The translations under genes were made by a program, and so were the position numbers. Below the pieces are notes generated by a model. The model had not been told where the DNA came from. It made no database searches and saw only the letters and a program-made list of their open reading frames with translations. Positions 1-24,381 of a stretch of DNA of 64,000 nt are shown piece by piece; position 1 is the first letter of the stretch; each line of letters starts with the position of its first letter. The DNA is from a virus. Taxonomy: Duplodnaviria; Caudoviricetes. The DNA lies in the IMG/VR virus record IMGVR_UViG_3300013830_000002, positions 64,001 to 128,000 of that record; one strand, given 5' to 3'.

Positions 1-1799
1 GTTTCAGTTCCTGGAATATTCCTGAGTACAGAATGAAAATATGTCATTGGTTGCCTGAACATTTCTGATATTGAAGGGACCATACTCTTAATTTGTGTAG
101 AAGGTACTTGAATGTCAGATACTGTAAGAATCTGTCCAACTCGTAAGTCTTTCTATTGAACACGAGTTGTCCTTTTATCAGGAGTTTGCTTAAGTGTAAA
201 CAAAGAGTTCTCCAAAATAGTGGATGAATTGTTGGCAGTTTCAATAGCTTTTTTAGCAGCCTCAATAGTAGGAACAAATTTCATGTGTGCTGGTGGAGAA
301 ATAATGTTTCTTCCAACAGCATAAACAGTCTTACCATTGATTAGTCTTCTATAAATATACATTCCCTGATATTCTCCATTATTAACTCCTTCTTCATTTA
401 CTGGAGAAAACAGATACTCTGTATTATAGCCAAAATCGTAAATCTCTCCTATTGATTCATAAGGGAAACTAAGTGTAATATAAGAAGTAGATTCTCTCGG
501 AGCTACTTTAACTGTTTTAGTCACTATGTAATCATAGTTATAAACAATTTTTCCAGTGCTTCCAAGATGTGCAGTAATTACTCTGGGAAGAATTTGCTTC
601 TCGTCATCTTCAATAGGGATTTCAATTTTATTACTGGTAATAAAGTCAATTTTTTCCTAAGCAGATAACTTATCAAAATCAGAGTACTTTCCCCATAAGT
701 TTTCATTCCACTTTTTCGCAAGCAGCTTTGCACTTACCTATGGACTTCTGTGCTCTGTAATTGTTTTTACTTTATCCTCAGCAGTATCATTAGGCTGACT
801 AAAGGTAATATCTGAAAGGGCTGCTCTTCCTAATTTAGGAAGTCCCAAGAACAAACCTGGATTTTCACCATTTTCATCACTGAATAATAGTTTAGACAAA
901 GTATCGTTATCAGCCTGCTTAAATGCCTCCCATGAAACTTTATCTGCAAAATCAGGAATGTACTTTGCAAGTACATCATAAAAAGCCTTCTTAGGTATTT
1001 TCCAATCAAACTAATTATCTGACTTAACCGTTATCTGCTATAATGCCAACTCTAAATCAGTAAGATTATTATCAGAATTCCAGATACCATTTACTTTAGC
1101 TAGAATATTACCTAAAAGCTTTCTTGAGTTATGCACTTTACCATCACTTCCAACATAATCTGTAATAGAATCTCTGTCGTTAAGATACTGTATCAAAAGT
1201 TTTTCAGGAGTATTTAAATTTTTAGAGGTCTTTTTGTAGTCTACCAATTCCTGAAAAGTTTTCCATAATTCTGGACCAACAATCTGTTCAAGACTTCCAT
1301 CTTTCAGAGCTTGAGCTATTCTCTCCTTAGACTTAAGATACCTTAAAAACTTCTATGCATCATATTTGGATTTAATTACAAAAAGCTCTTTTCCATCAGC
1401 AGTAATAACCCGTCCGTTATATTCAACATTATTCAGTTTGAATTGATTACATCTGACAATATTATACGAGTTGTATAAAGACACATCATTAAACTAAAAT
1501 TCATTTCCTAAACCATATTCATCTAACAGTCCTTGAACCGTTGTATTACCGACTACTTCTCCTGAATTAATCATTTTAATAGTCAATGGTATTGCCTTGG
1601 CTCCTGATAGACTATCAGAAATTTCCTTTAGCTTAACTTTGGATTGGTGGCCCAAAATTTGAGCCACCTATTCCATAGTTAATTTAGTATTTTCGTCAAT
1701 ATCTACACCTTCAATATTATCGAGCTATATGGTTTTAGATTCCCGTTTTTTAGTTTCTTGGTTATATACTGGTATTTGTAAGTTTACTATACATGCCAT
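1..1799 (-). CDS. Third giant virion/cargo protein, N-terminal part (partial, runs off the left edge; TAG=Gln)
   Basis: ATG at 1797-1799 (MACIVNLQIPVY), 1 nt after the RNAP TGA. ORF fragments 1038..1247 and 153..524 are in the same frame and end in TAG. The frame stays open toward position 1. Confidence 0.75.
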
Positions 1800-1800
1800 A

Positions 1801-4800
1801 TCAGCATTTCTTTAATATTAAAATTCTTCCAGACATTGACTGGTCAATCAATGTATCCTTTATCTGTTTAATCTGAGCTTCACTTGGTTCTCCTTCAAAA
1901 ATAAAGGACTTAATCATTGCAATGGTCTTGGCCATTGAAGGCATTTCAAACGGACTATTTTTCATATAATTCATTCGTCTTATTTCCTTCTGCTCTGGAG
2001 TTTCCTCTGTAGATTTAGTAGGAGGAAGTATTGCATAAGGAGAATATGAATTATCAGAATTTCTCTGATATACTATATAGGTCCAAACAGGGTCTTTTAC
2101 TTTAACAAAAGGCTCAGTATGAAATTTCATAGCATATTGTGAAATAAGTGGAGCTGCATTTATCTGGTAGTCAATTAGCTTGTAATCAGGTACAAAGTCA
2201 TAATCATAATCTTTTGTACCAACAAAATTGAAGTACTTGTTCAAAATGCTGGTTTGCCGTGAACAAGCTTTGAAAGCAGTAGTAAGTCTTTCACTTCCAT
2301 ACTGGTTTCTGTTGACAATAATATTATATAATTGCAGGACATCAGCTATAGTCATTGGGTGTTTATTGTCAGGGTAATCAATAAAGTTTTCTCCATTTCC
2401 AAATTCAGTACTCTCAAACCTTGCCATTCCAGTTAAGATTTCTCCATAGTCAACTTCTGATTGAGAAGTAATATTAGGATTCATCAAGTCAATATCTGTA
2501 GTGAGAAGTGGTTGATTTCCTATTTCTGTAAGAGTTAAATGTTTAACCAGTGGATTATTTTTATAATTGTCTCTTAGATACTGTAAGAAAGTAGTCTCAA
2601 CAAAATGTTTGAATCCTGCTATACCTTCCATAGTAGACAAATCATAGCTGTCAACCCCACCTGTAATCTCTGCAAATGAAGAGTCATATCCTACAGAATT
2701 CATGCCTTCAGGTAAAATAAACTAAGGAAGAGACTTACAGAATTCGTAGGAATTAAGTGCATCAACATACCTTATTACTCCCTGAAGTTGTTTATCACTC
2801 AGATAATTTTCATTCTGTGTAAGTTTGATAATCAAACGGCTCTTCATTGCTAAATTATTGGCTGTCACCAATAATTTCAGACAGTTCATAATCTGAGCAT
2901 AATGAGGAATCTGATAAACCATGTCGATAGCATTGACAGTACCCTTAAGTACATCAAGATAATCCTTTGCAATCTTCCTATAATTACTGTCATTCATCAT
3001 TTTAACAGGGTCAAAATTATTGATTATATCTGCTTCATTTGCAGCATCAAAAGCCCTTACTATCTTGTCTTCAGTTAAAGTAGGATTGTTTTCCTGCAGT
3101 CTTTCTACAAGATTCTGCCAAGCAGCAACAATTTTTGCCTGTTTCTTCTCATCATTAGAAGTTTTTGGATATAACTCTGATTTTTTGACCTCAAACAGAT
3201 TTTCCCTGTCAGATATTACCCTCTTTATGCTTCTTATTCGTTTGAGAATGTCCAATTCAGAAGTAGGCAATCCTTGATTTAGACCTAATACTGCTGAAGC
3301 AACAGTGGTCATTTCCTGAGAATAGTTATATATTTTCTGAAATTCATCAGCATCTGCAATCATGTCCTGTTCAGGCATTCCAAGTGCCTTATAGCTTTTG
3401 ACAACATCCTGAAGCTGCAAAGTCAAATCCCAGCAGTTTCTGATGTAATTGACTACCTCAGGGTCGTCATTCAAGGTACTGTCAAAATTCATAAGTTCTG
3501 AGTATAGATTAAATGTCTGATTATATACTTGAATATCTGGCCTTTTAGCTATAGCTTGAATAACACCACTCATAAGAGTATTCAAGTCAATATTGTTGAG
3601 TGCATCAGGGTCAGTCTCACTTCCGTTAAGAAGAGCAATCCTGACCTCCCTTTCAAGTTGGTCATTAGCTTTAATAAAATCAACAAGAGTGTTCCTTACA
3701 ACTTTAGATTTCTAAACTGGAGGATAATAATCCCCTGTTACAGGGTCTTCATATCCAGGATAACTTCCATGAATAAAGTTATTTGCATTAAGAATACCTT
3801 TAGACAATTTAATTGCCGTAGCAGCACTTACATAACCATTTTCCGTTTGGAACATATTTACATTAGACCTGCTGTCAATAAACTCTCCAATAGGAGAAGT
3901 CATAAAGGCAGCAATATCATCAATACTGTATCCTTGAACAATCAAGAATGCATACATTTTAGCATAATTGGTTCCTGCATTAAGTTTGGCAAGAATCAAT
4001 TCCTTAGCGTTCATTTATATTAGTAAATGTATATTTACCATACTTATATTTTCATATAAGATTAGACTATATCATAACTTCTGTTGAAGTTCCTTGTACT
4101 TCGGAAATTTTTCCTACTCTACTCGATTTTATTTCAGTCTTTCGATAGTCGTTGCTCCTTCTTCTTATTTATATTAAGAAGCTTGGGTCAGGGTTGTCCA
4201 ATTTTTAAACTTATTACTATATCTAAACAATTAATTTAGCCCTATAAATATTACTATTTATAGTTAGTATTTAAAACTTTAGGAATTTCCCTGAGTTCAC
4301 AAGGTTTTTTACTACGGACTCCGCTTATTTATATTTTAATTTATCTATGGTAATAATAGTGATTTAATCATCATAACCAAATTCTTTCAGCGCAATATTT
4401 TTCTTAAAAATTGTTAAAAACACTTTAATCCGTAGCGGCTGAAAGCATTTGAGAAATTGCCTGGTCAACATATTTGTAACCAGCCTCTTCAAGTGCTACT
4501 CCAAGTTTCTGAGTTAAAGCACTGTTAATTTGCTCATCAGTTAAATCAAGGTCAGGAAGTACTCGTGTAACACTTTCAATAGGAGCATTTTTTGCTCTGC
4601 CCTTTATTCTGTTCAGAGTTACCTGATACTTGAGGTATTCTATAGCTTTTGGATTTCCAGATTTTAGAATCTTAGTCCAGTAATAATAATCGTTAAACCA
4701 GAATTTTTCTGCATTTGCAAAAATACCAATATCCTTTTTACCTACCAAATTCTGGTATTGCATTACATATTTGGTAAAAGGATTAAGCATATTAAGATGA

Positions 4801-7800
4801 GCGGTCTGCTCCCCTTTTGGTGAATTATCAGCTGCTCTACGTGGGTCACTCATACCGATAGCTGTGTAAGCTTGGTCACGATTTCTGATGTCACTTGATA
4901 CAGCATAGATGTTTGCAGAAGCTACATTCTTGTAAGCTTGTTCTGCTACACTTTCAGGTATTTCATAACTTTCCTGCAGAGCAATGGTTCTCCTAATTTG
5001 GTCTATGACAGACTTGCTTATATTTGAGTCTGAGATAACATAATAACCACCATTTTTCTCTATTTTCAATAAAATATTTTTAAGATGCTTTAGATAATTT
5101 ATTCTTTGTTTTTCAGAGTACATCTCTGAAGGTCTGATATATTGAGTTGGAACTTCCTTTCCATTGCCGTCTACTTCAGAAGATTCAGCATTTTCAAGGA
5201 GTCCTATAACATCCTATGAAATATCCAAGTCTTCTTTGGTGAAATTATCATAAAGGATTTTACCATTTTTACTCATTAAATATGGAGTTCCTGTTTCATC
5301 TAATTGCAGCAAAGTGGTTTTAATACCCTTTGGAATCGGAAGTTTCTTACTTTCCTCAAGAGTTTTCACTGTCGTAAAATCAAAGAAGGGACTCCATTTG
5401 ACATATACAGAATTAGCACTATAATTCTGACCCATTATATAGGCTTTATCAATATCATAGTCAGAACCCTAAAGGTATGTTTGGAAGTGACTTACATAAG
5501 CCATATTTTTACTATTTTCTGTCCATCCTACCAGTTTCATAGTCATAAATGACTGAAGAGTCTGTGCAGGAATACGGGCAGCAATGAACTTCAAAGAGTC
5601 TTGGAATGAAACCCATTTTTTATGAGCTTCTTTTTCTAAATAATCTCTTTTTACATTTACTAAATGCTGTTTCTTTTTAGCATCATCACTGGAGAGCAAG
5701 TCTAACTAGTCTTCAATAGCACTATGAAGATTGGGGTCAAGAGTTCCTTGACCGAGCACTTCAATTAGTGAATTTCTGATAGCATTGACCTTGCCTTTCT
5801 GAAGTCGCTTCTCTCTGTTTATTTCAACATATTTATAATCTCCAGCATTGAAGATAGAAGCAATAATATGTTTTTGCTATCTTAAAGCATCAGTATTTTT
5901 AGTATCATCAGTTACAGTTTTCAGGTCTTTTTCAGTGTATCTAAGAGCTTCCTTAATTTCATCTAATGTAGCAACCTTGTACATTATATTATTTTTAAAG
6001 AAGTCTACTCCTTTAACTGTGCTTTTTGTCTTTATGTTATATCTGGTAACAAAATTTATCTTTCGCTGTACAATTCCGTCTTTTACTCTGTACATAGATT
6101 GGTCAAGTTCCTGATTATCCTTAATAAACTTGCCATCTCTATATTCTACAGAACCATCATTTACCCATCTTCCTATTTTAAATGACTTCTTTCCTCTTTC
6201 TACAGCATATATGTCTGCAAAACCTTCAGCATTATGCTCCTCAGTAGTAATATTGGTAAAGGGAACTTCTGTAACGGTTTGACTATCCTCAGTTACATTT
6301 CCAATAGTAATTAATGTATGTTTTCCATTTTCTCTTAAGAAAGCATAATCGTAAATATTATTTTTAGGGGCTTGTAAATTTTCTGTTTGCCTACGGAAGA
6401 AATCCTCTCCATCACTAAGAATTTGGTCTAATGACTTACCATCAGGAACTCCAAAGGTATTCTTATATGGGTTACTCATTATCAATTCAGCATCCGTATT
6501 CTCTAAAGTGTCTGCTTTCATTCCAGTCAACCACTCAGCATTTTTGTTTAGTTTACTTATAGCATTAAAATTTCCCTCTGATGCATTGTAAACATCATTT
6601 AGAGTGGCTTGAACTTCAGCCCTGTAATTAGGACCTCTGTTCTCCCAGGAATTCTTAATAGCTGGAGTATCAAAAATATTCATCCAGTGGTCAGTACCAT
6701 CAGCTCCAGTGTATTGCCATCTGATAATTGAAGGTCTCAGGTTATTAGGAGCAGTAGTACACTTTTTCAAGACCATATCATGCATTATTATTGTGCCATC
6801 AGGAGCAATTCCTTTCTTGAAATTATAATAGGTTTTTAAATCCTTAATATCAATGATTAAGTCATTGTTATTTTTATCCTTAACAGCTGTACCATCAGCA
6901 TTGAATACTGCTACAATATCAGATGGCATAAAATATTCAAGACTTCTTGCAGGCTCTTTTGCCTATAACTGTTTCAGATAGATTTGAAGCATTTTCATGT
7001 TGGCCTCATGCGCATCATCTACGTTATGAATAGCATCATAATATTTAGGAAGCCTTATTTCTGCAGGAGTGCTTCCATTCTCTGATTTCTTTGATTTATT
7101 CTCCTTGTTTCTTAAGTTAGCAACCTGTTCTGCTTTCTTTTCAAGTTGGGCAATTCTTGCAGTACCAATACCGAAACCTTCTTCATCAGTAGCTTCTTTA
7201 ATAATATTAGTGTTAGCATTACCACTTTCATCAACAGGATGAGTCCCATATTGAATCAGAAAATCCTGAAGTTGTCTTCTGTAGTCCTCTTGAGCAAGTC
7301 TGATTACATCAGAAGCCATAAGTTTTCTGGGCCCATTATCAGTACTTATTTCAAAATACTGTTGCATATTATATGCAGGAGCCATGACAGCACCAGTGCC
7401 TGGATGTTTACGTTTAATAGAATTCTTATTTATAGTTGAAGCAAGGGTAGCAATGAAGTCTGAGTAAATATTAGCATCACTAAATGGAAGCTTGACTTCG
7501 TCTTTTTCATGGTTACTATATTTATTGAATACATGTAAGACTGCCTGTTGGATTATATTGGTCAGATTTTCATTGTCCTTGATAGAACTATTCATAAAGA
7601 TAATTCTGCCAATTGCATCATAAAGGTCTGATTTAGCCTGACTGATTTTGATTTTATTCTTGGCATCAGCTTCCATTGCCTCTGTATCAGTCATTGGTCT
7701 TGTATTTCCCTGTGCATCAGTAATTGTATAATCAGTTTCTGCAGCCAAAGCATCTAAGAATTTATTTACTGCAACCAATGGCTGCTGTGATGCCTGAAAT

Positions 7801-10800
7801 GCAGTTGAGGCAAGGCCTTTAAAGATTTCATTACAGTTATTATAGGTAAATCCATAGGCTGAAGTAGCTGCAATAACCTGACTGAACTCAGTAAGTTCAG
7901 AGTCTACAATATCATGGTCTGCATTCATCTGCATTCCAAGACCATCAGAGTCAACCTCAAACCATGTCAAGTCTTCATCATCTTTCCATCTTTCTTTCTA
8001 ATTTACATTTTTAGCACCATTTTTAACAGCTGAATTGTTCAGGATATATCCTATCTGATACTGTTTCAGAGGTTGCGTATAAGTAGTCTGGTCAATATAT
8101 GGAGTACCTTTAATTCCTGGTTTCTTGCTTCCTATATTGCACATATAATTGCAAACTACCTCATTGTTATATTCACCGAATATACCTTCCTTGTTGCAGC
8201 TGTTTATTCCTCCAAGGGCTGAATGCAGTTCGAACAATGAATTAATGGTGTGAGCCCCCTGATGCTCAGAGACAAATTTAGCTGCTTTTTGATAAGTGTC
8301 GAAAGTATAGTGTTTCGATTTGGTAATGTTTCCGTTTTCATCCACTGAATCATAGAAAATATGGTACTTATTGACAGTGTTACCATAAGAATCCTTTTCA
8401 ACAGTATAGTAATACTTAGCTCCATCTTGTGTAACAGTCCTGTCAAGAAGCTTGATTTCCATTATGTTACCATACTTATCTTTATAGCATAATGGCTGAT
8501 TGCATGTAATATTCTTTGCAAACCACTTTTGAAGAGCCTCTCCTTCAGCTCCTGAAATAGAAGCTTCCATTGTAATAGGTCTGGTCAAATCAATATTGTC
8601 AGCAGGATTCCACTATAAGTTTGTTGCTTTCCTGAACATATTATATAGTCTGACACTTGCGGCAGAAGAGCTTCTCATAGCTTCATTAGTCATTGTATCA
8701 GTAGCAAATTTAGCCAGAAAAGCTGTTCCAGACTCTCTGTCATAGCTGTGCCAAATAGGTTTCTTAATAAATCCTACTGCCTGAGAGCCAAGTGCCCTGT
8801 TTTCCAAAATACATTGGAAAGGAGTAATTTGAGCAGAGCCATCACAAGCATCAATATCACCTTCGTGGTCTCCTCTATAATTATAGACAGGAGCCTGGTC
8901 ATCCTTTACTACTGCACACTTGATTCTTGGTGGAATACCATCACGGGAATTCTGTACACAGTATTGAAGTGTTGCAGGAATGATGACATTACGCTTAAAT
9001 TGTGTACTTTGTCTGTTATTTAAAATCTGAATGTTTGACGTTTCCCATAAATCCTGCAAGAAAGAATGTGCAGAATCTGTTTTCCCTTGCTCAGAATATA
9101 GATAATTTCCCAAATCATTCAGGTCATTGAACCTGAAAGCCTAATGAGCTTGATTAAATATATTGCTGTCAGTTATGAATTTTATGTCAGAATAATTTTT
9201 GTCTCTCTAATTTTTATCAAGCTATGATTGAGAATCTAACCACTATTTTACCTAATCATAGGATGTGAATTTATGTGCAGCAACTCCATTGTATGCTTTA
9301 TGCAGTTTATCAAACCATGTTTTGGTTTTTATAGGATGATTAGTTTCAAATCCAGTAAGTGTATAGCGAAGCTGATTGCTTAGGAATCCTTCAACATAGA
9401 AGAACTTGTCTAATAATGGATTTAGTTCTACTTTTTCATTAGGATTAAATCCATCACTCAAAGACATTATATTTCTGCCATTTTGTTTAGCAATAATCAA
9501 CTTACCAGTAGACTCATCAACCCAATTTTTAAAGAACTCAGTCCTAGCTTTGATTTTATTTTCCTATTTATCACAGTATCCTAAAATAGTCTTAATAATA
9601 GGATTCTTTGATTTTACGTTACTGTCAATAGTATCAGCTTCATATTGGCTAACAGTATCACCATCAGTTAAAACCTGATAAGAGCAATAGTTCTAAAGTA
9701 GTTGCTGAACAAAGATAGCCTTCTGTTTTTCCAAAAGTCTGTCAAGCATTCCTCCTTCAGTTGTGGAGTTATAAAGTTTCTGGTTAAACAGCAATGAACT
9801 GTCCAATTGGCAGAACCCTGATTTTAGTCTGACATAATCATGGTTCAGGGTTACAGAAAGGTTCATTTTCTGTGCTTGTGTCACAAGCTGGCTTTCTGTA
9901 ATATGATGAAGCATAGTATTTAAGTCAGTCTGTGGAGTAGATGTATAGAAAAATCTATTCTCTCCTTGATTCAGGAAATTGTCCAAAGCTACTTGCTTGT
10001 CTTCCTGCTTTTCAGTACTATTTAAAATCTCCAAAGCCTTTGCCTTGACTCCTGTAGCATACGCCTGCACAATTTGATTTAATTTACCTGTGCTGGCATC
10101 AAGAATTCTTTTAGTAGTAATTCCCAAAGTTTCGAAGTACTCATTGAGGAGCTCGCCTTTAGACATTGTCATAAGGTTCTTTCCTTTATAAACAGGGTTT
10201 AGTTCCCAGTTCAGGAAAGTGGTTTTATCCGAATATGTAGTAGGCTGTACAATTACATGTCCAGTAGCCAAATAAGAATCCCAGAATTTATTAAAGATAG
10301 CATGGAAAAATAGCTCTCCGTTTGTGAAATCAGAAATAGCCTTTGTTTCCCCCTCAGTATTAGTAACTTCCAAATCATGAAATGTTTTTACTATCATGTC
10401 TGGATTCTGAGCAAAAAGTAAGAATCGTACCTTTGAGTCTTCAGCAGCTTCTTTCTGTAGATAATAAACAAGGTTTGTACCTAGCTTAGCCACTGTATTA
10501 TTAGGAATTGAATTACCCGCAGAATCTTTAGTGGTAGCTTTTGATGCTTGCCCTGATAAAACAGACTCTGCATCTACCCATTGATTGATTGTCTGGTCAA
10601 AAGTAGTTGCTACTACTGGTCTCAAATCATTGAATACTTCAGTAAATGACCTGTTGGATTTTTTGCTTCTAAGATAAGCCATGTAAGCTGCATTACTTGT
10701 ATCTGACAAATATTTAGCCAAAGGCTTTCCTACTTTATTAGCATCGAGCCTCAATTTTTCAGCATAAGCAGATTTCATCGCCATCCTAAGCAACGGCTGA

Positions 10801-13157
10801 ATGAAATAATGAAATCCTTCTATAGGACTGTAAAGTTGTTGCAGTGTTCCTAAGACCTGAAGATTTTTACTTGGATTGGAAAGCAGGCCAAGTCCTGTGG
10901 TGTCATCAATAAATTGGAGTACCCCATTCAGCAGCCTTGCACCTTCACTTTCAAGTGGAAGGGAGTGCATTTTAGAGTATCTGAAATTAGTTGCAATTCC
11001 TATATTGGGATTTGATATTTTCTGAAAGAATTCAGATGTAACATCTTTTGTTACTTCTTCCCCTTCAGGAGTTATTTCATTTTTTGTTACCTTAAAGTAC
11101 ATTGTGCCTTCCTAACCAGGCCTGACCGTCCCAAATATTCCAGCCTTAATGTTATTAGATACTATTAAGCTGATAGTATAGTCACCTATTTTAACTGAAT
11201 ATTCTGTATTCTTACCTATTTTAGCAAAGGAATCACCAAGCTGTCCTTCAGTAAGTTGATATTTGTCAGCAAGACTTTGAAGCTTGTCTGTAGTCATTGA
11301 GTTTGCAAATCGGTTAACTCTTGTTTTTGTATTGAACTGGTCCTTTACATTGAAGAACTTTTTCTTGGCAGAAAGCTTCATCAGCCCTGTACTGTAATCA
11401 AACTTTGATTCAAGATAGTCAGCAACTGCATTCCTGTCTACATATCCTGCAATCTCTTCAAGAAGCACATTAGCAGCTGCATTTTCACGTCCTGCCTTAT
11501 TAGAGGCTTTTGCAAAAAAGGAATTAGTGTTTTCCCTGTCAAAAACAACATTATACACTGATTTCAGAATATTCAAATCATATCCAGTAATTTGCTGGTT
11601 TTGAATATCAATAGCATCTACAAGAGCTTTTGACATACCAGGTTGCTTTGAGAAAAGCAGTTCAAGGATTTTCTGAAGATTCCCAACAGGATTAGCATGG
11701 AAGTTTCTGGCCAAACTGTATAGCTCATTGGCATAGTCATTTTTATTCTTTCTTCCTTCTCCTGGGGTAGGAATATATTCAGAATCAACCTTAATATCCT
11801 TGAATGTGATATTATGTGTAATCAATGCATCCATAAGATTTCTGGAAGCAACAATCAATGATGTACTATTTACACGTCTATGTGTGTACTCTCCTGTTTT
11901 ATAGTTGAATACACCAATCATATCAAGCACGGTTTTTGTAAATTGTGATGTGTGTTTTTCGGCACCTACATCTTCTGATGTCTGCCACCCCTTAACCTCG
12001 TGCTTTACATCCCTGTGATATGAATATTTGGTATCAGAATCAAATTCTGCATTCTCAAGGCCTTCCTGAATGTCTATATTATCACCAAAAGTTTCCTTTA
12101 TAAGCTGGTCAAAATGAGTAAGCATTGTATAAGCCTATGAAGCACTTAGTAATGACGGAGACTCCTTTTCTATTTCACTAATAGCTTTTTTATCGTCGTC
12201 ACTGCCATATTTCTCAATATATTTTTTCAAGAAAGCATAATACTGAGAGTAATTTTCTCCTTCATATAGCTTTGTAGGTGCCTGTCTAGCCTTGAATCCA
12301 GTAAATTTTTTATCAGCTCTCTTTTTAAATTCATCCGATAAATATAATTTATTCCAAAGAGCTGTATATTTATCAGTTTTTTCCTTCTTTTCCTGTTCAA
12401 GCAAGACATTGTTTTGCTGAGTTTGCAATTGCTCAGAAAAATCGTCTATTTTCTTTACTTTATCATAGAAGAAATTAAGGGCATTATAGTAGTTAATAAG
12501 GTCAAGCTTTCCATCCTCATCATACATTTCTGACTTGAAGTCTGCTGCCTCTTCTCCGTATTGCTGCTTAAGGTATTCCACAAGAGACTTGAACATTCTT
12601 GCTTTTTCATCCATTATTCTAAGATTCAAAGTATGATTGTCAAAGTCAGTCATTTCTCCAGTAAACTGGTCATAATATGTAGCAGTTGAAAGCCTGTCAG
12701 AAAATGTTCTCTGTAATGCCTGAATTATAGTATACGAATCCAGGCCATAAAATTCTTTATAATGCTCAGTAAGGTTTGCCCTGTTTTTATCCTGAGCTTC
12801 AAATTTTGTTTTCGTTTCATTGTCCTAAGACGGAATATCCTCTTGGGTATTGTCCATCTCAAAATTCATGACATCACTGATTTTCTTTTTGATTTCAGAT
12901 ACTGACATATCTCCTGTATATGCAGCCAAGACAGAGTCAATAGTCTTGTCAAAAAGTCTTAATGAGTCAGCAATTTCAATATCATCATCTGCTTTGCCTG
13001 GAGATAATCTAATCTGATTACCAGGATGTCTAAATTGCTTAATGTAAGAAAGGAAACCATTAAGGTCTCCTTTCTTTAGACTTGCATTAAGCTTAATAAC
13101 TACGAATTTAACCTGCTTATCATCAAACAGTTTTAATCCACATATTTCAGCGCTCAT
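1801..13157 (-). CDS. Giant virion-packaged double-psi beta-barrel RNA polymerase, about 3646 aa after splicing (exons 13157-4428 and 4011-1801; TAG=Gln)
   Basis: At least 13 ORF fragments join in frame at TAG. The catalytic motif RIPAQTLQS...YL[Q]GSDYDIDK is at ~5445-5580, and SAATD|NAKEL is rebuilt across the intron. The ATG overlaps the upstream stop (TGATG), and the gene ends in TGA at 1801. Confidence 0.9.
4012..4427 (-). mobile_element. Group I self-splicing intron (416 nt, no ORF) in the RNAP gene
   Basis: The 5' exon ends ...CTACGGAT and pairs with IGS GTCCGTAG (~4312-4319), with a U.G at the splice site. Core elements CAACGACTA and GATATAGTCT (P7) are present and the intron ends in G at 4012. 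Removal restores the frame and D-NAK. Confidence 0.9.
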
Positions 13158-16100
13158 CAGCATTCAGTTAATTTATCAAATAGTTCACTATCTATTTCAG
13201 CTATTGGTTCAAGAATATCAGCATATTCTTCCACCCAATCATTAAACATCTTATCAATCTCAGATTGTGGAAGCTGTGTATTTCCCACTATCTGATTGAT
13301 AGTATCCACAAAATTAGTAAGTCTGTTTTCCTCGATTGAGTATTGCTTAAACTCCTTTGAGTTAACAAGTTGCTCAAGTATCTTTCCAACAGTACTATCC
13401 CTGAAGTTTCTTCTTAAAATTGAGGTATTTTGCTCAGTAGGCTCTGATGGCTACTTGAAGGTATCCTCAAAGCTGGACTTACTAACAACAGTTATATCAT
13501 TTTTATTGATGGAATAGGTGCCTGGCTTTAAACCGTTTGTCTCATTGTCAATTTGCACCTTTATAATTCCATTTTCTAATTTAACGTTTTCTATAGGTAC
13601 ATTGTATTTGGTGGCAATGTATTCTTTATAAGTAACAAACCTATTATTTACGACATCAAATGTTATAAAGCTTGTATCTGACATTAAGTCATCAGCACTC
13701 CCATTTCTGTAAGAGGAGCCAAGCATTTTTTTCATATCTGTCATATAGCTGTTTGCCACATCATTCATGTCCTCAGCATCATCAAAATATGAAGAAAGTG
13801 CAGGATAAATATTTGGATAGTGCTCTTTGAATGTATCAGCCAGTGATTTTGGCTGCTCTCCAGAAGGCCCTGTTTCCTATGGTGTAGTAGTTTCCACAGT
13901 GACAGGATTAGTTGTAGCTTCCATTAATTTTGATAAAGGAATTCTGATTCCAGCTGTTCTCAAGTCAAGGTCTGACGTAAATAATGCAGGATTAGTACCC
14001 AGTTCAAAGAATAAAATAGTAGGCTGTATCTGTCCTTCTTTAGCAGCTGTAACAGTACTGATGTCTGTACTTGCTGTACTTGACTTCTGTCTACTTAAGT
14101 CTGGATTAATAAAGAAGCCATGCTTAAAGTAAGCATCGGTAAGCTACATGACTTTCTTTTGATGAAAGTCTTCAACTGTGCCATGAAAGATAAGATTAAG
14201 CATATCAAACAAGCTATTATCAATAATACCGTTTTTCGTTGGAGAAAGTAACGGTTTAGAGCCAGAATTTCCTGTTAAAAATTCAATTAAGCTTGACTTA
14301 ATCACATGCTCATCCACAGTACTGCCCTGACCGTCACTTGTATAGAATTTACAAGTCACATTTAATTTATCCTCTGGTGTAACGGCCATGACTTCAGGAT
14401 TATGCTGATAATAGGCAATTGTCTTAACCATACCAGAAATCAAAGCAGGAACAGCTGACCAGTATTCGCCCTAAGTGTACATTACCTTTCCTGCCTCACC
14501 TCCAATAGTAATAGTACCACTGTTACCTTTAATATCATTGATGAATCCTGATAACGACCTTCTGACAGCTTTTCGTGTATCAGCTGATTTACTGTTAATA
14601 TCAATATACTCATTGGCAAGGTATGGAGTTTTTGTATCTGTATGCATTAATGCAAGGTGCAATGAATACATTTTTGTGTCAGTACTCAAGCTCTCTCCAT
14701 CATGAGTATCCTTGTCAGTAACCATAGGATTAACCAGGGCATCAAGCATCTGCTTGAATTGTCTTGCTTTATCCAAAGTAATCGAAGCAAGGTTTACATC
14801 AATATCAGGTTTTGTATAAGCAGTTGTTCCCTTAAGGCTGAACCTTTGAATATGGAAACCGTTTATATTTGTATTATACCCTATCCTGAACATAGGAATA
14901 TCCTTACAAGTCTTTTCGGTAAATTCCCTAAATAGTTTATAATAGGAATTTTCCTCTATGTTGTCAGTATTGACATTCCCAAAAGTCTATAAGATTACTA
15001 CTGCTTTCTTAAGAGCCTCAGAAGCTTTTTCCTTATTCTTTTCTGTCTTACTTATATAGATATTGTAATCAGCCTCTGCCAGTTTGTCCATTTGCTCATC
15101 AGTAATATTATTATCTGATTTCCACTTATCATAAGTATTAAGCAGATTGACCAGGGAAGCTCTTGCATTCCATAATGACACAAACATTCTTATACCAGTA
15201 AAATTCTGTCTGTAAGGACGTCTATAGCCCCCTTCACTTCCTTGCATCTGACTTATAAACCTTTTATTTGTCATTTGTGAAAATGATAGTCCGTAATTAT
15301 TAAGAACTACCATTTTTACTACTGGTTTATGATGCATAGGGTCTTTGATTTGCTCTAACCATTTTTGTGCAAGCTGGTCAGACTTCAGTAAAGTGTCAGA
15401 TGTAACAAATATAATAGCCTTGCCTTTTAAGGTTCTGTCTATCTGGAACATCGGGTCATTCAAATCCCTACCTGAGTATGTATAAACAGGAGAAAATACC
15501 ATATTCGGATTATGGTCTATCAAAGTGTCAAGGTCTGTTGCATCCTCAACTTGCTCACCATTCTCAACTGGCTATTTGATAGTATCAGGATTAATTCTTC
15601 CACCAAGTCTTATAGGAACAGTTCTATGTACTGACCAGGTTGTTTCTGTAAGGTATTCAGGATTTACATTTCCCAAATCAACATCATAAGAGCCATTCTG
15701 TCTGAATTTTGTAAGTTGGTCGTTAAACCAGGATGTGTATCTTGTAGCTGCGCTGTTAAGATTATCGGACATTGACTGTAATTTAGCAATATCCTTTTTA
15801 ATTCTTTCAGCAGTTTCAGGTTTAATATCAGGAGCTTTAAGCTTATTCTACAAATTACTTATTTTTGCTGCCAATGACTTAGTCAGTTTTCCATCAGGTC
15901 TTGCATTTTCCATGAATGTCTTAGGGTCAGTAAGGCCAGCTAAGTCAATTTTACATATACGACCTTCATCGTTTTTGCACTCAAATACTATATTAACATA
16001 GTATGGAACAGGCTTTCCTCCTTCATCAATATTAATCACTCCGTCAAGCATCCAAGGAGCTTTTACACTATCATCAGCAAGTCTTATTTCAAGTTTGAGT

Positions 16101-19100
16101 TTTCCTGCTTCCCAATTTTTTCTTGAAATCTAAGACTGCACTGATGGAGGGAGCTCATTCCAATCATGCCCAAATAAAATAGCAGATTTGGTAGCATACA
16201 AATCCTTTAACAGAGACTGTTTATCACTGTAAGTATGATATTCATTTCCATCTTCCCTTTCAAGAGTTATTGCCTGTAGATTACGTAATACTCCTGTTTT
16301 AGGGAATTCTACTTTCCAAGGCTGTCTTTTCCCTTTGTGCTGAACACCATTTACAGTGTATGTAAATTCTTCTTCAGGAAGTACTGTTACAGACGTGACA
16401 GTTACTTTTCCATAGCTTTCAATTGGATAATCCTGCCATCCTTCTGCACTATTTGTATCAGGAATGACCTCATTGCTTTGCTCTTCAGTATCAGCCTGTG
16501 CACCCAATGTATGCAACACTTTTTCAGAATCAGTATCTATTGTCTTTGTGTCTGGGTCAGCCATATCATCAGCTGTAACAATTTCCTCTTTAGTGTGGTC
16601 TTGACCGTCATTAGTGTCATTGCCCTGTGCAGGTTGAGGTTCCTTCTACTTAGGTGCTTCTGGAGTTTTATCTTCTTTCTTTTGTGCTGTAGGCTCTTCC
16701 TTTTCCTCTTCATCCTGCTCGAATGTAAGCTGATTAAGAACACGTTTTTTAGCTTCAATCAAATCTTTTATACCAGCTTTAATGGAAGGAGCAGGGGTTT
16801 TCTGATTGGATATGACATTTTTTCCAATTATATCAGAAAGTCCATTATCAATAAAAATTGAAGCTTCCCTTGCACGGGTCATAAGAGTATACAGTTTCTG
16901 CAGCTCTTGATAAGCAGGACCAGTGGAATTAGGTTTAGTGAACTTTTCATCAATAACCACATAATCAAATTCCTGTCCCTACATTTCCTTCATGCTCATT
17001 ATATTTTCCTTTGGTATGTTTATTCCTGCTTCAATAAGTCTCTGTAGGTGGGCAGAAGAAGTACTTCCAATGAAAGCAATAGTAGGCATTGTACCGTCTG
17101 CCTTCTTTGTAGCTAAAGATGCCTTTATTTTATTTATGGTGTCTTCATCTAAATCTTTAGTAATAAGGTCTCCGTTCAGAACTGTGCTTCTGTAGATTCT
17201 GAAGTTCAATTTGGACATTTTAGCCTGAATTTTTGGAAACAGACTTTCATATTCTGCCTGAGTAGAGTAATTCCAGGCTTCAAGTACTTCATTTAATAAA
17301 CCTCTTACATCATCTTGATTTTGGGTTTTCTGCAGATTAGCATCCCTGAGTGATACAGACAGCTAAGGAGTCCTGACTGCCCATACAGAACCGACACCTA
17401 TATTGGAAACTTTATTATTCCCATTATATGCACCATTTTGTGCAGGGTCTCCTGTCATAAATACTTGAGCTCCTGTTTGTCTAGCATATTCACTTATAAT
17501 TTCAGCTTCTGCAGTGCTTAACTAAGTTGCCTCATCAATATAAATAACTGATGGAGTATCATCAATTTTATTGAAATGAATTTCATCTTTATGCAGCTCA
17601 ACTGTGTTGATTGCAAAAGGTGATTCAAATACCTTAAAGTATTTACTACTTTTTCCTTCAGGAACTTTCCTGAAGTCATCCATTATTTCCTTATATTGTT
17701 CCTTGCCTAAGATTTTTTCAAAAAGTTCCTTAAATGTTATGGATGAATCTCTGCCCATAGATTTTTGCATAGCTAACGCCTGTGTTGCAGTAGGCCCTGC
17801 AACAAAAGCAGTTTTATCCTTGAAATTCTAGTCAATTGTCTTTAAAACAACCTAAGTCTTTCCAGCACCAGCAACACCAGGAATAATGGTTACATTATCC
17901 AAGAAAGGAATGTTTGTCTTACTTTGGTTATATGCCTGTTTTACAATTTGCCTAAAAGTGTCCGTGGTAGAGGCAATGGCTACACGAGTATCGTATTCCT
18001 AAACTGTAATAGGAGCAATTGTCTCATTTGACTTTACTCTTGCTGCTAGTTTTGAGAAGAATGTATTTGGATTGTATGAAAACAGAGTTGCAAAATAAAC
18101 CAACTTGTCGTAGTCAGACATTGAATCCAGCTTAATTTTATCATTTATTTCTGAACTCTGCTGTCTTGCTGTCTTACTAATATCAGGAATTATTTTCTGA
18201 ATCAGATTACTCTTTTTAATGAATTCCTCAGTTGATAATCCAGAGTCTTTTAGAGCATTCTAAAAATTTCTGTGAATTATCTTTTCCATTTCAAAAAGAG
18301 GAATCTGAACTTCATCAGTAGAAGCCTTTGAAGTATCTATAGAAGAAGCCCCATCTATTAAATCATATTCCTTGTCACCTACTTTTACTTTCAAATCAGT
18401 ATTAGAAACCAAATCCCATAAAGCCTTATTCAAGATAGCATCTGTACGGGCCATCTTTTTGAGCTTGTTGGCAGTATTCTCATCACTGAATTTTACCCAC
18501 CTTTTAGCTTCTTCCTCATATTTATCAAGTTCAGAGCTAAACAATGTAGCATAATCATCCCTTAACTCTGGAAGTGGTTTCCACTCTGTCCTGAGCTTAT
18601 CAGCATGAGCTTTGGCAAAATCATTGATAGTTGCATTATGGCCAATAGGTGACATACCAGTTAATCGTTTAGTAGTTGCAGAAGCTATGTATGCCTTGAC
18701 AAGATGGAAATAGTTTATTGCCTTTTCTATGTCACTCTTTTCAGCGTCATTGAGTTGTAACTACTGAATATCATTAATATTATCATAATTATCCTAAATA
18801 GTGGAAATAATCTTTTCAAGATTAGGAAGGTTATCACCAGCAGAAGCTGCTACTTGTTGAATAAACTCTGTAATAGGATTTTTGATAGAGGTATTTATTT
18901 TCTCCTGAAGCTTTACTAGTGGATTGTTCTTGACATTAGCTACTATATTGTCTATCTGAGATTGTGCAAATGAGGTATTTTTGCTTGCCTGTTTAATAAT
19001 GGCATCCTAGAACATTCCAGCACTGATAGTTCCTTGAGCTAAATCTCCTAAGGTTATAGTAGCTATATTCTCTACCCCACTATTAAGTAATGCCTCAATA

Positions 19101-22100
19101 TGAGAATTTAAACTTTTTACTGTATCCTCGTCAAGATTAACAGCATTGCCATCTAAAACTTCCTGAAGTGTTAGATATGAGTCCTCCCCCTCATTAGCTA
19201 ATTCATCATTATTTTGAGCTATAGTAGAAATAGCATTTAATTCATTTTCTATATTACTGGTAAGCTATTTTACTTCAGTATTTGAAATTTGCTGCTTAAT
19301 ATCCTGAGTATTATTAAGCTCTGTAGTCAGTCCATAGGCAATGGCTTTCTACTTATCATTAAGCCCAGATAACTAAATTTCCCTTGATAACTTGTCCTTT
19401 ATTCTTTCAGGTAGAATATTTTTTATATATCTAGCTGTAATTGGGTCTACTTTATAACCAACTTTTTTAAGTTCATCATCAATTTTAGCTGCAAATTCAG
19501 CATCCAGATTTTCATTATATGCTTTAATTTTAGCAGCTCTAGTTGTCCGGCTGTTAGCTCCAGTAGTTTCATCAATGGTAGCAGTATTTCTGTTTTGGAA
19601 CTCTTCATCGGATTCATCATCTAATTTGTCATCCCAGCCCTTATATTTTTCTACTTGTTTTTGAGGATTAAATTCATCAGAAGTAAATAGCTTTTCTATA
19701 TTCTGTCTCCATGTTTCATATTGAGGAACTTCCTGTGACACTTGCTCCAAATGTGGATTAACAAGTTTTTCCACTTCCTTGTATTTCTTCCATGCATCGT
19801 CAAGCTTTGTTGGAAGTTGCTCTTTGACATAAATCCCCCACTGTTGGGCAGCATCTGCAAATTCATCAGGACTTAACTGACTTAATGGTTTGCTGTATTT
19901 ATTTTGTATCCAGTTTTCCATGTCCAACCCCATGAATTCCTGATGGATTTGGTCATCCATAGCAAAATTCATTTTACGAACATAGTCAACTGAATTTTCT
20001 CCTGCCAGAAAATCATCCACTGCTTTTTTGGCAGTATCTCTCTTTTCCTGCATTTCCTGTAAATTAGCCAGTCTAGCTTGCTATTGCTGTTCAGTAAGTT
20101 TATTTAAAGAAGTGTCCTGCAGAATAGGCTTACCATTTGGCAGGCCATCCATTGTGTTCTGAGCTTGTTTTAACTGCTGCTCAGCTTTAATCAGATTATC
20201 AAGAACTTGAGCAAAATCATTGTAATAATTTGTTAATGGTGCAATGTCCTTATACCTATTGAACCTTCTTTCAGATAAAACCATATTATCAAAAAGCTAA
20301 TCATCAGAAAGATTAAATCTATCCCCAACAATTACCTCTTCGATGCCGTCAATTTTATCTCTGACAAGATTGGCAACAGCTTGACTCTATGATTTTGATT
20401 CATCATCAGTTGTTTTCCAAGTCAAATTATTGTCATCACCTACTTCATACTCTGTAGCAGAAAGTGATTTACTTGCACCAGTTTTTCCTTCTTTTTGTAG
20501 CTAATCAACTTGGTCTCTAAGCTCATCCGCATGACCATTTCTAATTAAAGTAGCAAAATCCTTATCAAGGTTTCTTGACATTGCTCCTGGATTTTGAACA
20601 GCTTCTACGCCATAGAATAATCCTCCACCAGCAGCACCACCTGAGAAGTCCATTAGATACTTTTCCTGCCAGTTATCCCAAGCACCAACATCTTTGGCAG
20701 AAGTATCAAACCCAAACTTGCCTGCAAGTTGATAGGTTTGCTTGGCAAGGTCAGCAATAACATCCTCACCAACCTCTTCAATACCTTCACCAAAAGATTT
20801 TTCGGCAAAATTAGTAGTGTGATACTTTACATCTTCAAGAAATTTTCCAAAGCCTTTCTTACTAACATCAGAAGCTTTATGAATTAGCTTCAGAAATTTG
20901 TTTCTTTCAGGAACACTAGCTGTTTGAATAGCATTAAATGATTCTCTAGCTTTTGCAAACTCATCCTTGACTGCTTTTCTTGCAGCCTTTGTTACATCGC
21001 CAGTGGCATCGTCAAAAAACAATTCACCAATACCAGTTTTATCAAATTTGTACATTCCAAGAGTACTTCCCAATGCAACTGCAGCTGCATCAAGTTTAGA
21101 AGCACCGTGGTCAAGCATATCCTGATATACGTCTGTATTGCTTACAATTGCCATATAAGCAAGGGATAAATCTCTTCCAAGCTGGCCTGATTTAGCAGCT
21201 ATTTTTTCTGCTTCAGGCATAAACTTATTCAAGCAAGCTTGTCTAAGCTCCTCACTTGGACCAAGTTCAGCAGCTTTTGCCATATACAGATTTGCAGCAT
21301 TTTCCTGTGCTTCCTTAATAGCTTCAGGGCCAGCTTTTTTAAGCTTATTAAATGTGTTGGCAATTACTTTTTGTTGCCCCCATTGAACAGCTACATCAGC
21401 CATCAGGTTTCCAAAATTCTCAAATGAGAAGGCATTTTGCTGAGCATAGTCAGACGTAGAAGTTGTCCCTGCCTATGCTTTAGCAGCAATGGTGTTTATC
21501 CATGAAGGAGTTTCTGAGTCTGAAAAAGCAGTAACCATTCCATAAAGCATTGGCAAGGATTTAGCCATTTCACGACCAATCAATGCAGCGGAGTATACTG
21601 TACCAGCAGGCCCCATGAAAAGTGGTGCAACTGCTGCAATGCTTTTTGCAATAGTTCCTGGGATTGACTTCTCCAAATCATCTGAATCAAAGAAATCATA
21701 TTTGTTTAATCCCTTTCCATCAACAGTAAGAACATCTGTTGCTGCCAGTACATCCTTTCCAAGAGGAGACCTTCCTCCAAGGGTTTCATAATAATATGTA
21801 CCCTCATTGTTAAGCTTTGGGTCTCCTTTTTTATGTTCCATTGTCTCGCCTGTAACAGGGTCAATGTGTGTACCATCATTATCCCATGTAGCAAGTACAA
21901 GAGGGTCTTTAGTAAACATGTCTTTCAGGAACTCAAGTGGTTGCTCAAATAAGGCATGGTCATTTGGTGAGTAATTCTCATACTTTCCAGTAGAATAATT
22001 GAATACCTTACTATTTTCAGCAATTTCCCTTCTACTAAGTTCAGGGTCTGACACTATGTTTACTCCCTCAATACCAATGGCCTGCCTATCAGGATTATAA

Positions 22101-22438
22101 CCTCTTTTTACAGAAAAATGTACATCAACTACAGGAGTCTCATTAGTTCTGTCTATGTCAAACATGTCTAGTGCAGGCCCCTTATAGTAGTCACCTTTTT
22201 GGAACTCCCCAAACTCCGATACCTTCTTTTTATAGAAGGTATCGAATTTTGATTTAGAAAACTTGCCGTTTTCATCCTTAAAGGCATCGTTGTTTTTAAT
22301 GAAATTTGACTTTAGATATTCATCCTCACTGAGAAGCTGAGTATTATCTACAGTCATATCAGCAATATTGCTGAAATCTTTGACAGTGAAATCAGGATTG
22401 TTAAGTCCTGCAACTATCCAATCGTTTGCCTTTGCCAT
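13157..22438 (-). CDS. Giant virion cargo/ejection protein (~3093 aa) with N-terminal hydrophobic segments and an internal superfamily-1 helicase domain (TAG=Gln)
   Basis: 15 ORF fragments share one frame, each ending in TAG, with a true TGA at 13157. Helicase motifs in order: GVAGAGKT (17855-17878), AGPT, YIDEAT, TGDPAQ, M[Q]GQEFDYVVID, LYTLMTRA. EGIEE and GGAAGGGLF segments lie near the N-terminus. Confidence 0.85.
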
Positions 22439-22446
22439 AGTTTATA

Positions 22447-24381
22447 TTAATTATTAAGTACATCTGAAGAATTTCCTGCTGCCCTGCCATCCCTGACATA
22501 CCATTTATTTTGATTCCTTCTTTCCATTTCAGAAGCTTCATCATAATAATCAAGTTTCTGTCCATCAGTTCTAGCTGCAGTGACAACACTGTCATCAATA
22601 GGAATGTAGATTGCTGCCTTATACACTTTATCGTAATTATAGCCAGCCCGTTCAACAGGATTCCACCAGTTCTTTTCATCAATGTCAGGAACATTAAGTT
22701 TCTTTCCATCAGCTGTTTTAGTAGCTAAGCTATCCTTGATAAGCTATACTGCAGAATCAGTATCTCCTCTGTACTCTTTAACAAATGAGGAATCTTTGAC
22801 TCCAGAAAGTTTATCTGTAGTGTAGCCCTCAGTTACCAAGAATATTCCGAATTTATGCTCATTAAGACTTCCATCAGCCTTGAATACATCATACAAACCG
22901 TATTTTCTTGCCAGAGCATTTTTCTGAGTAGTGCTCATTCTCGGACTAAGAGCTAATTGAGCTTCAAATTTACGATATTTGTCAAGCAAACTAAAATCAA
23001 CACTTCCATCACTCTTGATAGGAAGAATTGCCCTTGTTATACCGGTATCGTTATATGTAATATTTTTGAGTTTATCAGGAGATATTTTCTGGTCTCCAAA
23101 TGTGATACTCTGATTATTTTTGACCAAATTAGCAATGCCTGATTTAGTCATCATATCACGCAAAGAAGTATTTCCTACTGCCTTACCATCAAGGTCAGTA
23201 ACCATACCCCAGGTTTTTCCTGTAACGGACATTTGTACTCCATCACCTCTGTCAACTGTGATAGGCTGTTCAACACCTCCGATACCTTTAACAAATTCTA
23301 TAAGCTAAGAGTCCTTAAAGTTATCCATGCCTTCATTGTCTTCAGAGCTTTTTCCTGACTTTCCTTTCTTACCTGATTTTGTACCATCATCATGTGCAGT
23401 AAAATCAAGGTCAAATTGCGTAGTAGTACTAAGCTGTGAAGCTATCAGTGTTTGTATTAGTTTTTTTGCACCTTCATCAGTTAAGTCCGACTTTGACTTC
23501 AGAAGAGCTTTTGCGTTGACTGGAAGTGTATTGTATATATAGGCAAATGCCTCTGCTGCCTATTGCTTTTGGTCTTTGGTAAGATACTTTGATTTATAAA
23601 GTTCATTTACTGTTCCATCATAGGTTTGTCCATCAGCTTCTTGAACAGCTTTTGCAAAATCTTTAAGTCCACGAATTATCCTGCCTTGCTTTGTACTAGT
23701 GTAACCTTCCTCTGAAGCTTCAGAAGTTCCAAGTTTTCCAAGGGCTTGATTAATCATGTTTGTAACAGTCTCCATTCCTATACCATTTTGTACTACAGAA
23801 AGAAGCTGATTTTTGTTGGCTAAAGTAACATCCTGAGCACGTTGATAAAGAAGCTCTGAATTAGTAAGTGGAGTGTATTTTCCACTTGATTTTCTGAGTT
23901 CTTCAGGGGTCATTGTTTTGAATTCACCCTTTTTGTTCATACAGATAAACTATCCTCTGTCAGTAATAGCATACTCATTTAAACCACCTTTTGACTCAAC
24001 ATGTTTATAAGCATTATCATATTCCTACTTGTTAAACTTGGCAACTTTAAGTTGATTAATGATTCCTAAATATCTGACGGCAATATTGGAAGTGTTTATT
24101 GTATTTCCACCCAGACCAGGTAAATCATTGGACAAATAGAAGTTTTGCAGCTTGTTTGTCAAAACAGCCATATCACTTGGAAGGCCATCCATATCTTTCA
24201 ATAGCTGAACAATGTCTTTATCAGTAAGATTTTCAGATTTTCCTGAAGAAGATGACTTTGATGATTTATCAGAGTCACTTACTGCAACATTTTCTGAAGC
24301 TGTTGAAAGTGGTGTATAAACAGCATAAGGAGGAGTCCATGCTCCCCCTTGCTGTAATTTTTCAATAAAATTCAGTTTCAT
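22447..24381 (-). CDS. Putative virion cargo protein (~644 aa; TAG=Gln)
   Basis: Fragments 24025.., 23560.. and 22744.. share a frame, with TAA at 22447. Starts MKLNFIEKLQQGG. Confidence 0.8.

Follow-up and report, generated by a model that had tools for sequence, protein, structure and literature searches.

Paired terminal cysteines point to a probable end-to-end link between consecutive virion cargo proteins of crass-like phages

In a 64,000-nucleotide (nt) stretch of DNA from an uncultured crass-like gut phage, referred to here as the window (bases 64001-128000; the virus record is one sequence of 166,778 bp, 35% G+C, estimated complete), the first 22 kb carry on the minus strand a series of very long genes, in which TAG is read as Gln. 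In order of transcription, these cargo genes encode a helicase-containing giant, an RNA polymerase, a 911-amino-acid (aa) protein with an HExxH motif, and a 1535-aa protein, the latter just beyond the window (Table 1). We found that every terminus facing a neighbor in this series, six termini at three junctions, carries a cysteine (Cys), while both outer ends of the series carry none. The explanation that we favor, with somewhat better than even confidence, is that consecutive cargo proteins are linked end to end, most likely by a disulfide, into a head-to-tail concatemer; the end-to-end link itself is well supported as an inference from sequence comparison and from analogy with another phage.

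At the first junction, cargo protein 1 ends in ...DKLTEC, with its final residue Cys3093 encoded by TGC at 13162-13160, and its TGA stop (13159-13157) overlaps as TGATG the ATG of the polymerase (13157-13155), which begins MSAEIC with the Cys6 codon at 13142-13140; an alternative in-frame ATG at 13163, two codons upstream, would give MLMSAEIC. At the second junction, the polymerase ends in ...ILILKKC (TGC 1806-1804, TGA 1803-1801), and one base after its stop the ATG at 1799-1797 opens cargo protein 3, MACIVNLQ, with the Cys3 codon at 1793-1791. Both junctions had been described in an earlier note on this DNA, made from the letters alone (LTEC overlapping MSAEIC; ILKKC followed 1 nt on by MAC), and direct minus-strand reading bears out the first, as it does the second once the splicing of an intron is allowed. 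The same note remarked that the first protein of the series has no N-terminal Cys, and indeed cargo protein 1 starts MAKANDWI and its earliest Cys is residue 402. At the third junction, just outside the window, the 911-aa protein ends in ENCNA and the 1535-aa protein begins MPKC, with the latter having no C-terminal Cys. The four proteins contain just 38 Cys in 9185 residues (0.41%), and the joint chance of finding Cys in all six junction-facing segments, taken as the last 3 residues or positions 2-6, is about 1.6e-11.

Close relatives of the junction regions were found neither in the GenBank phage collection nor in IMG/VR, and the relatives were taken from large protein collections. Of 108 sequences homologous to the C-terminal polymerase exon (24-47% identity), 96 terminate in Cys, and most of the others have it 1-4 residues earlier. 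Polymerases that are unsplit and of full length (3300-3680 aa) have Cys in the last five residues without exception (120/120) and in the first ten in 118 of 120. The third-protein family, collected by profile search and represented by 131 sequences (at least 700 aa, clustered at 50% identity), has an N-terminal Cys in 129 representatives and a C-terminal Cys in 129 as well, many of them without any further Cys, and the two N-terminal exceptions turned out from their DNA to be start-codon miscalls, with true starts MKCKITF... and (GTG)SKCKVLF.... Nine syntenic contigs of 147-185 kb share with this phage the order of helicase giant, polymerase, ~900-aa protein and ~1500-aa protein, and both cysteines are present at all 26 junctions readable in the fetched loci (locus L004 stops short of its first junction), with the last protein again lacking a C-terminal Cys; one apparent exception, in L008, is a miscalled start, corrected to MKQC and counted so among the 26. 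The sole long polymerase match without a terminal Cys, P0111, was discarded, being no orthologue and lying in an unrelated gene context. At the nucleotide level the junctions of the relatives vary: both TGT and TGC serve as the Cys codon, both TAA and TGA as the stop, and the genes are spaced by anything from -10 nt (overlap) to +3 nt. Selection therefore acts on the amino acid. Short conserved motifs adjoin the cysteines; at the C-terminal ends, (K/E)(D/E/N)C comes after a hydrophobic stretch, and at the N-terminal ends, M-x-C precedes alternating hydrophobic residues.

Gene callers often misplace the starts of these genes, as a codon ending in A right before the Cys codon (TGC/TGT) of the upstream gene spells with it an extra in-frame ATG and produces MLM... 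starts, and internal Met codons are also picked over the true ATG or GTG. Such sites lie at 13155-13163 of the window, at 2006-2054 of L008, near position 2516 of L022, and near position 3980 of L023. The Cys rule gave the correct start in the three cases checked out of three.

The check proposed in the earlier note, namely, conservation of the terminal Cys across Crassvirales, thus finds the feature near-universal at 24-47% identity and present also in cultured crassviruses of other families, so that the refutation which the note named, a lack of conservation in homologues, clearly does not apply. In phi14:2, the only Cys of g067 (1797 aa) is the last residue, the polymerase g066 (2180 aa) has Cys 3 and 2179, and g065 (1421 aa) has one Cys at position 3, so that the four junction cysteines are all the cysteines in 5,398 residues. 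In crAss001, gp47 (2341 aa) has a lone Cys at -3, gp49 (1349 aa) a lone Cys5, and the polymerase gp50 has Cys5 and Cys-9. The rule is likewise kept in DAC15, IAS virus, cr111_1 and cr116_1. The first protein of crAss001, DAC15 and cr116_1 is encoded on the opposite strand and still has a lone Cys at -2 or -3; therefore, translational coupling cannot explain the pattern. The earlier note had spoken of three translationally coupled giants, and this has to be amended: there are four proteins in the series, the polymerase has to be spliced, and coupling is dispensable, as the first protein of crAss001 and DAC15 is encoded on the other strand.

The cultured cargo blocks (phi14:2 g067-g066-g065 and crAss001 gp47-gp50-gp49) resemble the present one in that the structural module ends with a polymerase gene between genes for further giants, the polymerase being a virion RNA polymerase with a DxDxD motif in the cultured phages and its probable counterpart here, and in following the terminal Cys rule. 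They differ from it in having three cargo proteins instead of four, in their only marginal sequence similarity to this phage, in carrying the HExxH domain in another protein of the block, in their polymerase genes, which have no intron, and in not recoding TAG, whereas this phage has both an intron and TAG read as Gln. The phi14:2 cargo-block giants have been detected in virions by mass spectrometry. In crAss001, gp47, gp49 and gp50 are cargo proteins detected by mass spectrometry, were placed in the unresolved cargo zone of the capsid, and were argued to need partial unfolding to pass the tail, in a particle that contains many inter-subunit disulfides (PMC10172136). That structural atlas does not mention the terminal cysteines of gp47, gp49 and gp50 (PMC10172136), the words cysteine and disulfide are absent from the phi14:2 polymerase preprint, and we found no description of the terminal-Cys feature for crassviruses in the literature, where the phi14:2 polymerase work was covered as its preprint.

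Some crass-like phages fuse these proteins into one polyprotein (Drobysheva et al.), and the fate of the junction cysteines in such fusions is informative. In cr53_1 (Suoliviridae), gp57 is a protein of 4645 aa in which the first protein is fused to the polymerase, with the catalytic motif at 3711. Residues 2144-2219 of crAss001 gp47 align to 2169-2245 of gp57, and polymerase matches start near gp57 2900; therefore, the fusion point lies at about 2220-2400. Cys is absent from gp57 between 1782 and 2918, a span which includes the fusion point, and also from its N-terminus, but gp57 retains Cys4644 of its 4645 residues, and the next protein, gp56, starts MQC. Within its own chain, this C-terminal Cys of the polymerase finds no partner at the N-terminus; the matched partner is in the next protein alone. 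A second phage, cr131_1, also has a fused protein, here a Cys-rich one, and an intact Cys pair at the last junction. On these sequences, junction-wise pairing is the sole scheme that fits the two-, three- and four-protein architectures. The fused cargo polyproteins, cr53_1 gp57 among them, thus have the same modules in the same order as here, with a peptide bond where this phage has a Cys pair. They differ in that the polyprotein is covalent by translation and probably cleaved later (Drobysheva et al.), whereas the separate genes of this phage would give a post-translational and reversible link.

A precedent with known chemistry is found in cyanophage A4, where the cryo-electron microscopy (cryo-EM) structure of the pre-ejectosome showed an inter-protein disulfide between the consecutively encoded ejection proteins gp27 and gp26 that locks the C-terminal helix of gp27 into gp26 (PMC12002296). 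In the record of Anabaena phage A-4L, the only Cys of gp27 (1717 aa) is residue 1715 and the only Cys of gp26 (1114 aa, MSKHC...) is residue 5. The Cys-poor proteins of this phage follow the same scheme, in which an upstream protein with Cys among its last few residues is succeeded by one with Cys at about position 3-6. There are also differences, given that A4 has one link between two proteins and this phage would have a chain of three links, that the linked A4 pair includes neither an RNA polymerase nor a helicase, and that A4 belongs to another phage family (Saffermanviridae), with the A4 paper not generalizing the feature (PMC12002296). Homology to A-4L gp26, gp27 and gp28 was not detected, the profiles of proteins 3 and 4 scoring E values of at least 0.16.

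We suggest the following mechanism. The C-terminal end of each cargo protein would dock on the N-terminal end of the next through the conserved terminal motifs, after which, on assembly or release of the particle, the two junction cysteines would oxidize and join the neighbors by a disulfide. All four proteins would then make up a single concatemer of about 9,200 residues that runs N-to-C throughout and corresponds, as a covalent chain, to the polyprotein that some crassviruses encode as a fusion. Its likely benefits would be a 1:1:1:1 co-packaging and the delivery of partly unfolded proteins through the narrow tail as one thread, with the links then being reduced in the host cytoplasm. The earlier note had already put forward cargo covalently linked end to end, and the end-to-end part of that proposal has stood up well, while disulfide chemistry in crassviruses, ordered threading and reductive release are steps that we infer.

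Several points weigh against this reading. Oxygen is absent from the gut lumen, where exposed thiols could stay reduced through small reductants; the crAss001 virions were reportedly purified aerobically before study, so the disulfides there could arise outside the gut. The bond has been seen physically in phage A4 alone, a single clean fusion case was mapped (cr53_1), and the C-side Cys of crAss001 gp50, nine residues from the end, is placed more loosely than elsewhere. Also, in this uncultured phage the virion location of the four proteins is presumed from synteny, the catalytic motif and weak profile matches: the matches of the polymerase profile to gp50 are marginal, PHROGs gave no match for the four cargo proteins or six neighboring proteins, and sequence and profile searches of the PDB gave none for the cargo proteins, with the sole Pfam match among the four being the helicase domain of cargo protein 1. 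Single-sequence AlphaFold2 models of the C-terminal 238 aa of the polymerase and the first 300 aa of protein 3 reached a mean predicted local distance difference test (pLDDT) score of 34 and 42, respectively, and were unusable, so that the strands predicted beside the cysteines are no evidence.

Among the alternatives, the one that survives best, unlikely as we consider it, is that the terminal cysteines bridge neighbors by binding one metal ion together, or as part of a non-covalent clasp where the thiol is just one of the contacts, with no disulfide being formed. The conservation and fusion data are equally compatible with any chemistry that bridges the junction, the gut habitat is reducing, and the C-terminal Cys is usually preceded by D, E or N (KDC, ENC, EEC), which could be an extra ligand. 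However, one Cys per terminus amounts to two thiolates, too few for a usual Zn site, and there is no conserved His or second Cys near the termini; moreover, cryo-EM of phage A4 shows a disulfide at the identical signature (PMC12002296), and disulfides do occur in crAss001 virions (PMC10172136).

It is also improbable, in our opinion, that the cysteines pair in another manner, either with the polymerase and the 911-aa protein each ring-closed N-to-C and the outer proteins paired, or with the termini anchored to the portal or capsid. The Cys counts alone permit the ring topology in three- and four-protein systems, and the structural proteins of crAss001 are rich in inter-subunit disulfides (PMC10172136), but the outer ends never carry Cys, phage A4 pairs junction-wise (PMC12002296), and the cr53_1 fusion, without both internal-junction cysteines, keeps its C-terminal Cys, whose only matched partner is Cys3 of the next protein. 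Finally, the idea that the pattern is chance, or a by-product of nucleotide signals that couple translation where stop and start codons overlap, is refuted in spite of both C-terminal Cys codons in the window sitting in AATGCTGAT adjoining the following start codon, given the varied codons, stops and spacing of the relatives, the keeping of the rule with the first gene on the opposite strand, and the chance value calculated above for this genome alone.

The reading of the second junction depends on the structure of the polymerase gene, where a covariance-model match and an exact exon junction together identify a group I intron. The match to Rfam RF00028 covers 4043-4328 within the intron at 4427..4012 and the full length of the model, with 42.9 bits and an E value of 1.9e-9, below the gathering score of 50. 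The intron opens with an in-frame UAA and closes with the G of the ATG that open reading frame (ORF) finders call the start of exon 2, so that exon 1 ends in ...GAU, with U before the 5' splice site, and the intron in ...AUG, with a terminal G; accordingly, ORF P0002 reads ...SAATD followed by an in-frame TAA, and P0003 reads M-NAKELILAK. Uninterrupted homologues read ...SAATDNAKELILAK... unbroken across the splice point (SAATD|NAKELILAK) in 117 of 120 cases, and therefore exon 1 ends at 4428 after U and the intron at 4012, with the spliced polymerase having 3646 aa. In the relatives P0006, P0008 and P0011, the polymerase fragment starts at the same point; the intron site is therefore common to several relatives. 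The catalytic motif is GSDYDIDKAYIM at polymerase residue 2566 versus GSDFDVDKLYIM in crAss001 gp50, with a local BLASTP identity of 37% over 59 aa, and a profile of 13 polymerase homologues gave against gp50 just three collinear marginal matches (domain E 0.02-0.08).

Table 1. Positions of the cargo genes and of the intron, in order of transcription.
Feature	Coordinates	Strand	Basis or remark
Cargo protein 1 (P0001), 3093 aa, superfamily 1 (SF1) helicase domain at residues 1514-1862	13157..22438	(-)	Pfam
RNA polymerase exon 1, 2910 codons, MSAEIC...SAATD	4428..13157	(-)	ORF P0002 (4425..13157, 2910 aa)
Group I intron, 416 nt, no ORF	4012..4427	(-)	Rfam RF00028 match and homologue read-through
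RNA polymerase exon 2, 736 codons, NAKELILAK...ILILKKC + TGA	1801..4011	(-)	ORF P0003 (1801..4014, 737 aa)
Cargo protein 3 (P0004), first 599 of 911 aa, MACIVNLQ...	3..1799	(-)	Gene leaves the window at its left edge
Cargo protein 4, 1535 aa, MPKC...	G000:C1:58464-63071 (locus L017), beyond the window		Overlaps the 911-aa gene by 8 nt

In other phages, insertions interrupt the polymerase gene inside its catalytic motif. In the relatives L002, L007, L008 and L009, they lie at about 8900-10000 and split GSDY | DIDKAYIMGQ, often with a LAGLIDADG endonuclease gene present; in cr131_1 (L014, 10296-11091), exon 2 starts MFDIDHLY after a different endonuclease-like ORF; and cr116_1 (L019, 12773-13614) has an insertion inside the motif as well. 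Mobile introns thus seem to target repeatedly the most conserved polymerase codons, in separate families.

The third cargo protein has its zincin-like HExxH motif at residue 765 of 911 (L017 6064-8799, minus strand, the motif being outside the window), and this motif is conserved in nearly all of the 131 family representatives. Elsewhere, crAss001 has HExxH close to the C-terminus of gp47 (2157), and the motif is close to the N-terminus in phi14:2 g065 (245), cr53_1 gp56 (205) and cr131_1 gp47 (343). Judging from these positions, modules are apparently shuffled among the proteins of the block while the terminal Cys rule is kept. The possibility that proteins 3 and 4 are a split form of phi14:2 g065 / crAss001 gp49 was considered and rejected: the profile of the fourth protein matches IAS gp057 (E 1e-8) and crAss001 gp49 (E 8e-4), and only this protein is weakly homologous, with the HExxH region of protein 3 matching instead the C-terminal part of crAss001 gp47; therefore, it cannot be argued that a split created a new Cys pair. 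Residues 242-314 of phi14:2 g065 (L011), which include the HExxH, match the gene for the virion RNA polymerase in Presley, an N4-like phage of Acinetobacter (36% over 73 aa, E 5e-5), and this similarity suggests that the ejected proteins of crass-like and N4-like phages have a peptidase-like module in common.

Immediately upstream of the cargo series lie genes for a 1658-aa protein (24383-29359, minus strand) and a 644-aa protein (22447-24381, minus strand), with zero and one Cys, respectively, none of them terminal. Neither protein matches a PHROG, and by position these may be the counterparts of the crAss001 cargo proteins gp45 and gp46. Outside the window, in the early/replication block, a thioredoxin-fold protein (PF00085, 43 bits) is encoded at G000:C1:49483-49713 on the plus strand (locus L021), and it is probably a partner of ribonucleotide reductase. 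The Erv-type sulfhydryl oxidase family PF04777 gave no match, and as the control genomes gave none either, this result is uninformative.

No viruses of the human gut are more abundant than crassviruses, and it is an open question how a cargo of megadalton size, with the RNA polymerase that starts their infection, is packed and passes through a narrow tail. The structural atlas of crAss001 could not resolve the cargo proteins (PMC10172136). A conserved rule that can be read from sequence and names which ends touch provides a concrete and cheaply testable model for this cargo, and it offers, besides, a means to infer chain order and gene starts in uncultured genomes. Going further, and only as a tentative idea whose probability we place below even, the enzymes would be packed as one disulfide-stitched thread of 9,200 residues and about 1 megadalton that leaves through the tail like a single polypeptide, with reduction in the host cytoplasm working as the switch that releases and activates them for early transcription. 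If this were true, gene fusion or splitting in the evolution of these phages would merely swap a peptide bond for a Cys pair. The link from crassviruses to the disulfide of cyanophage A4 hints at a wider principle among short-tailed, protein-ejecting phages.

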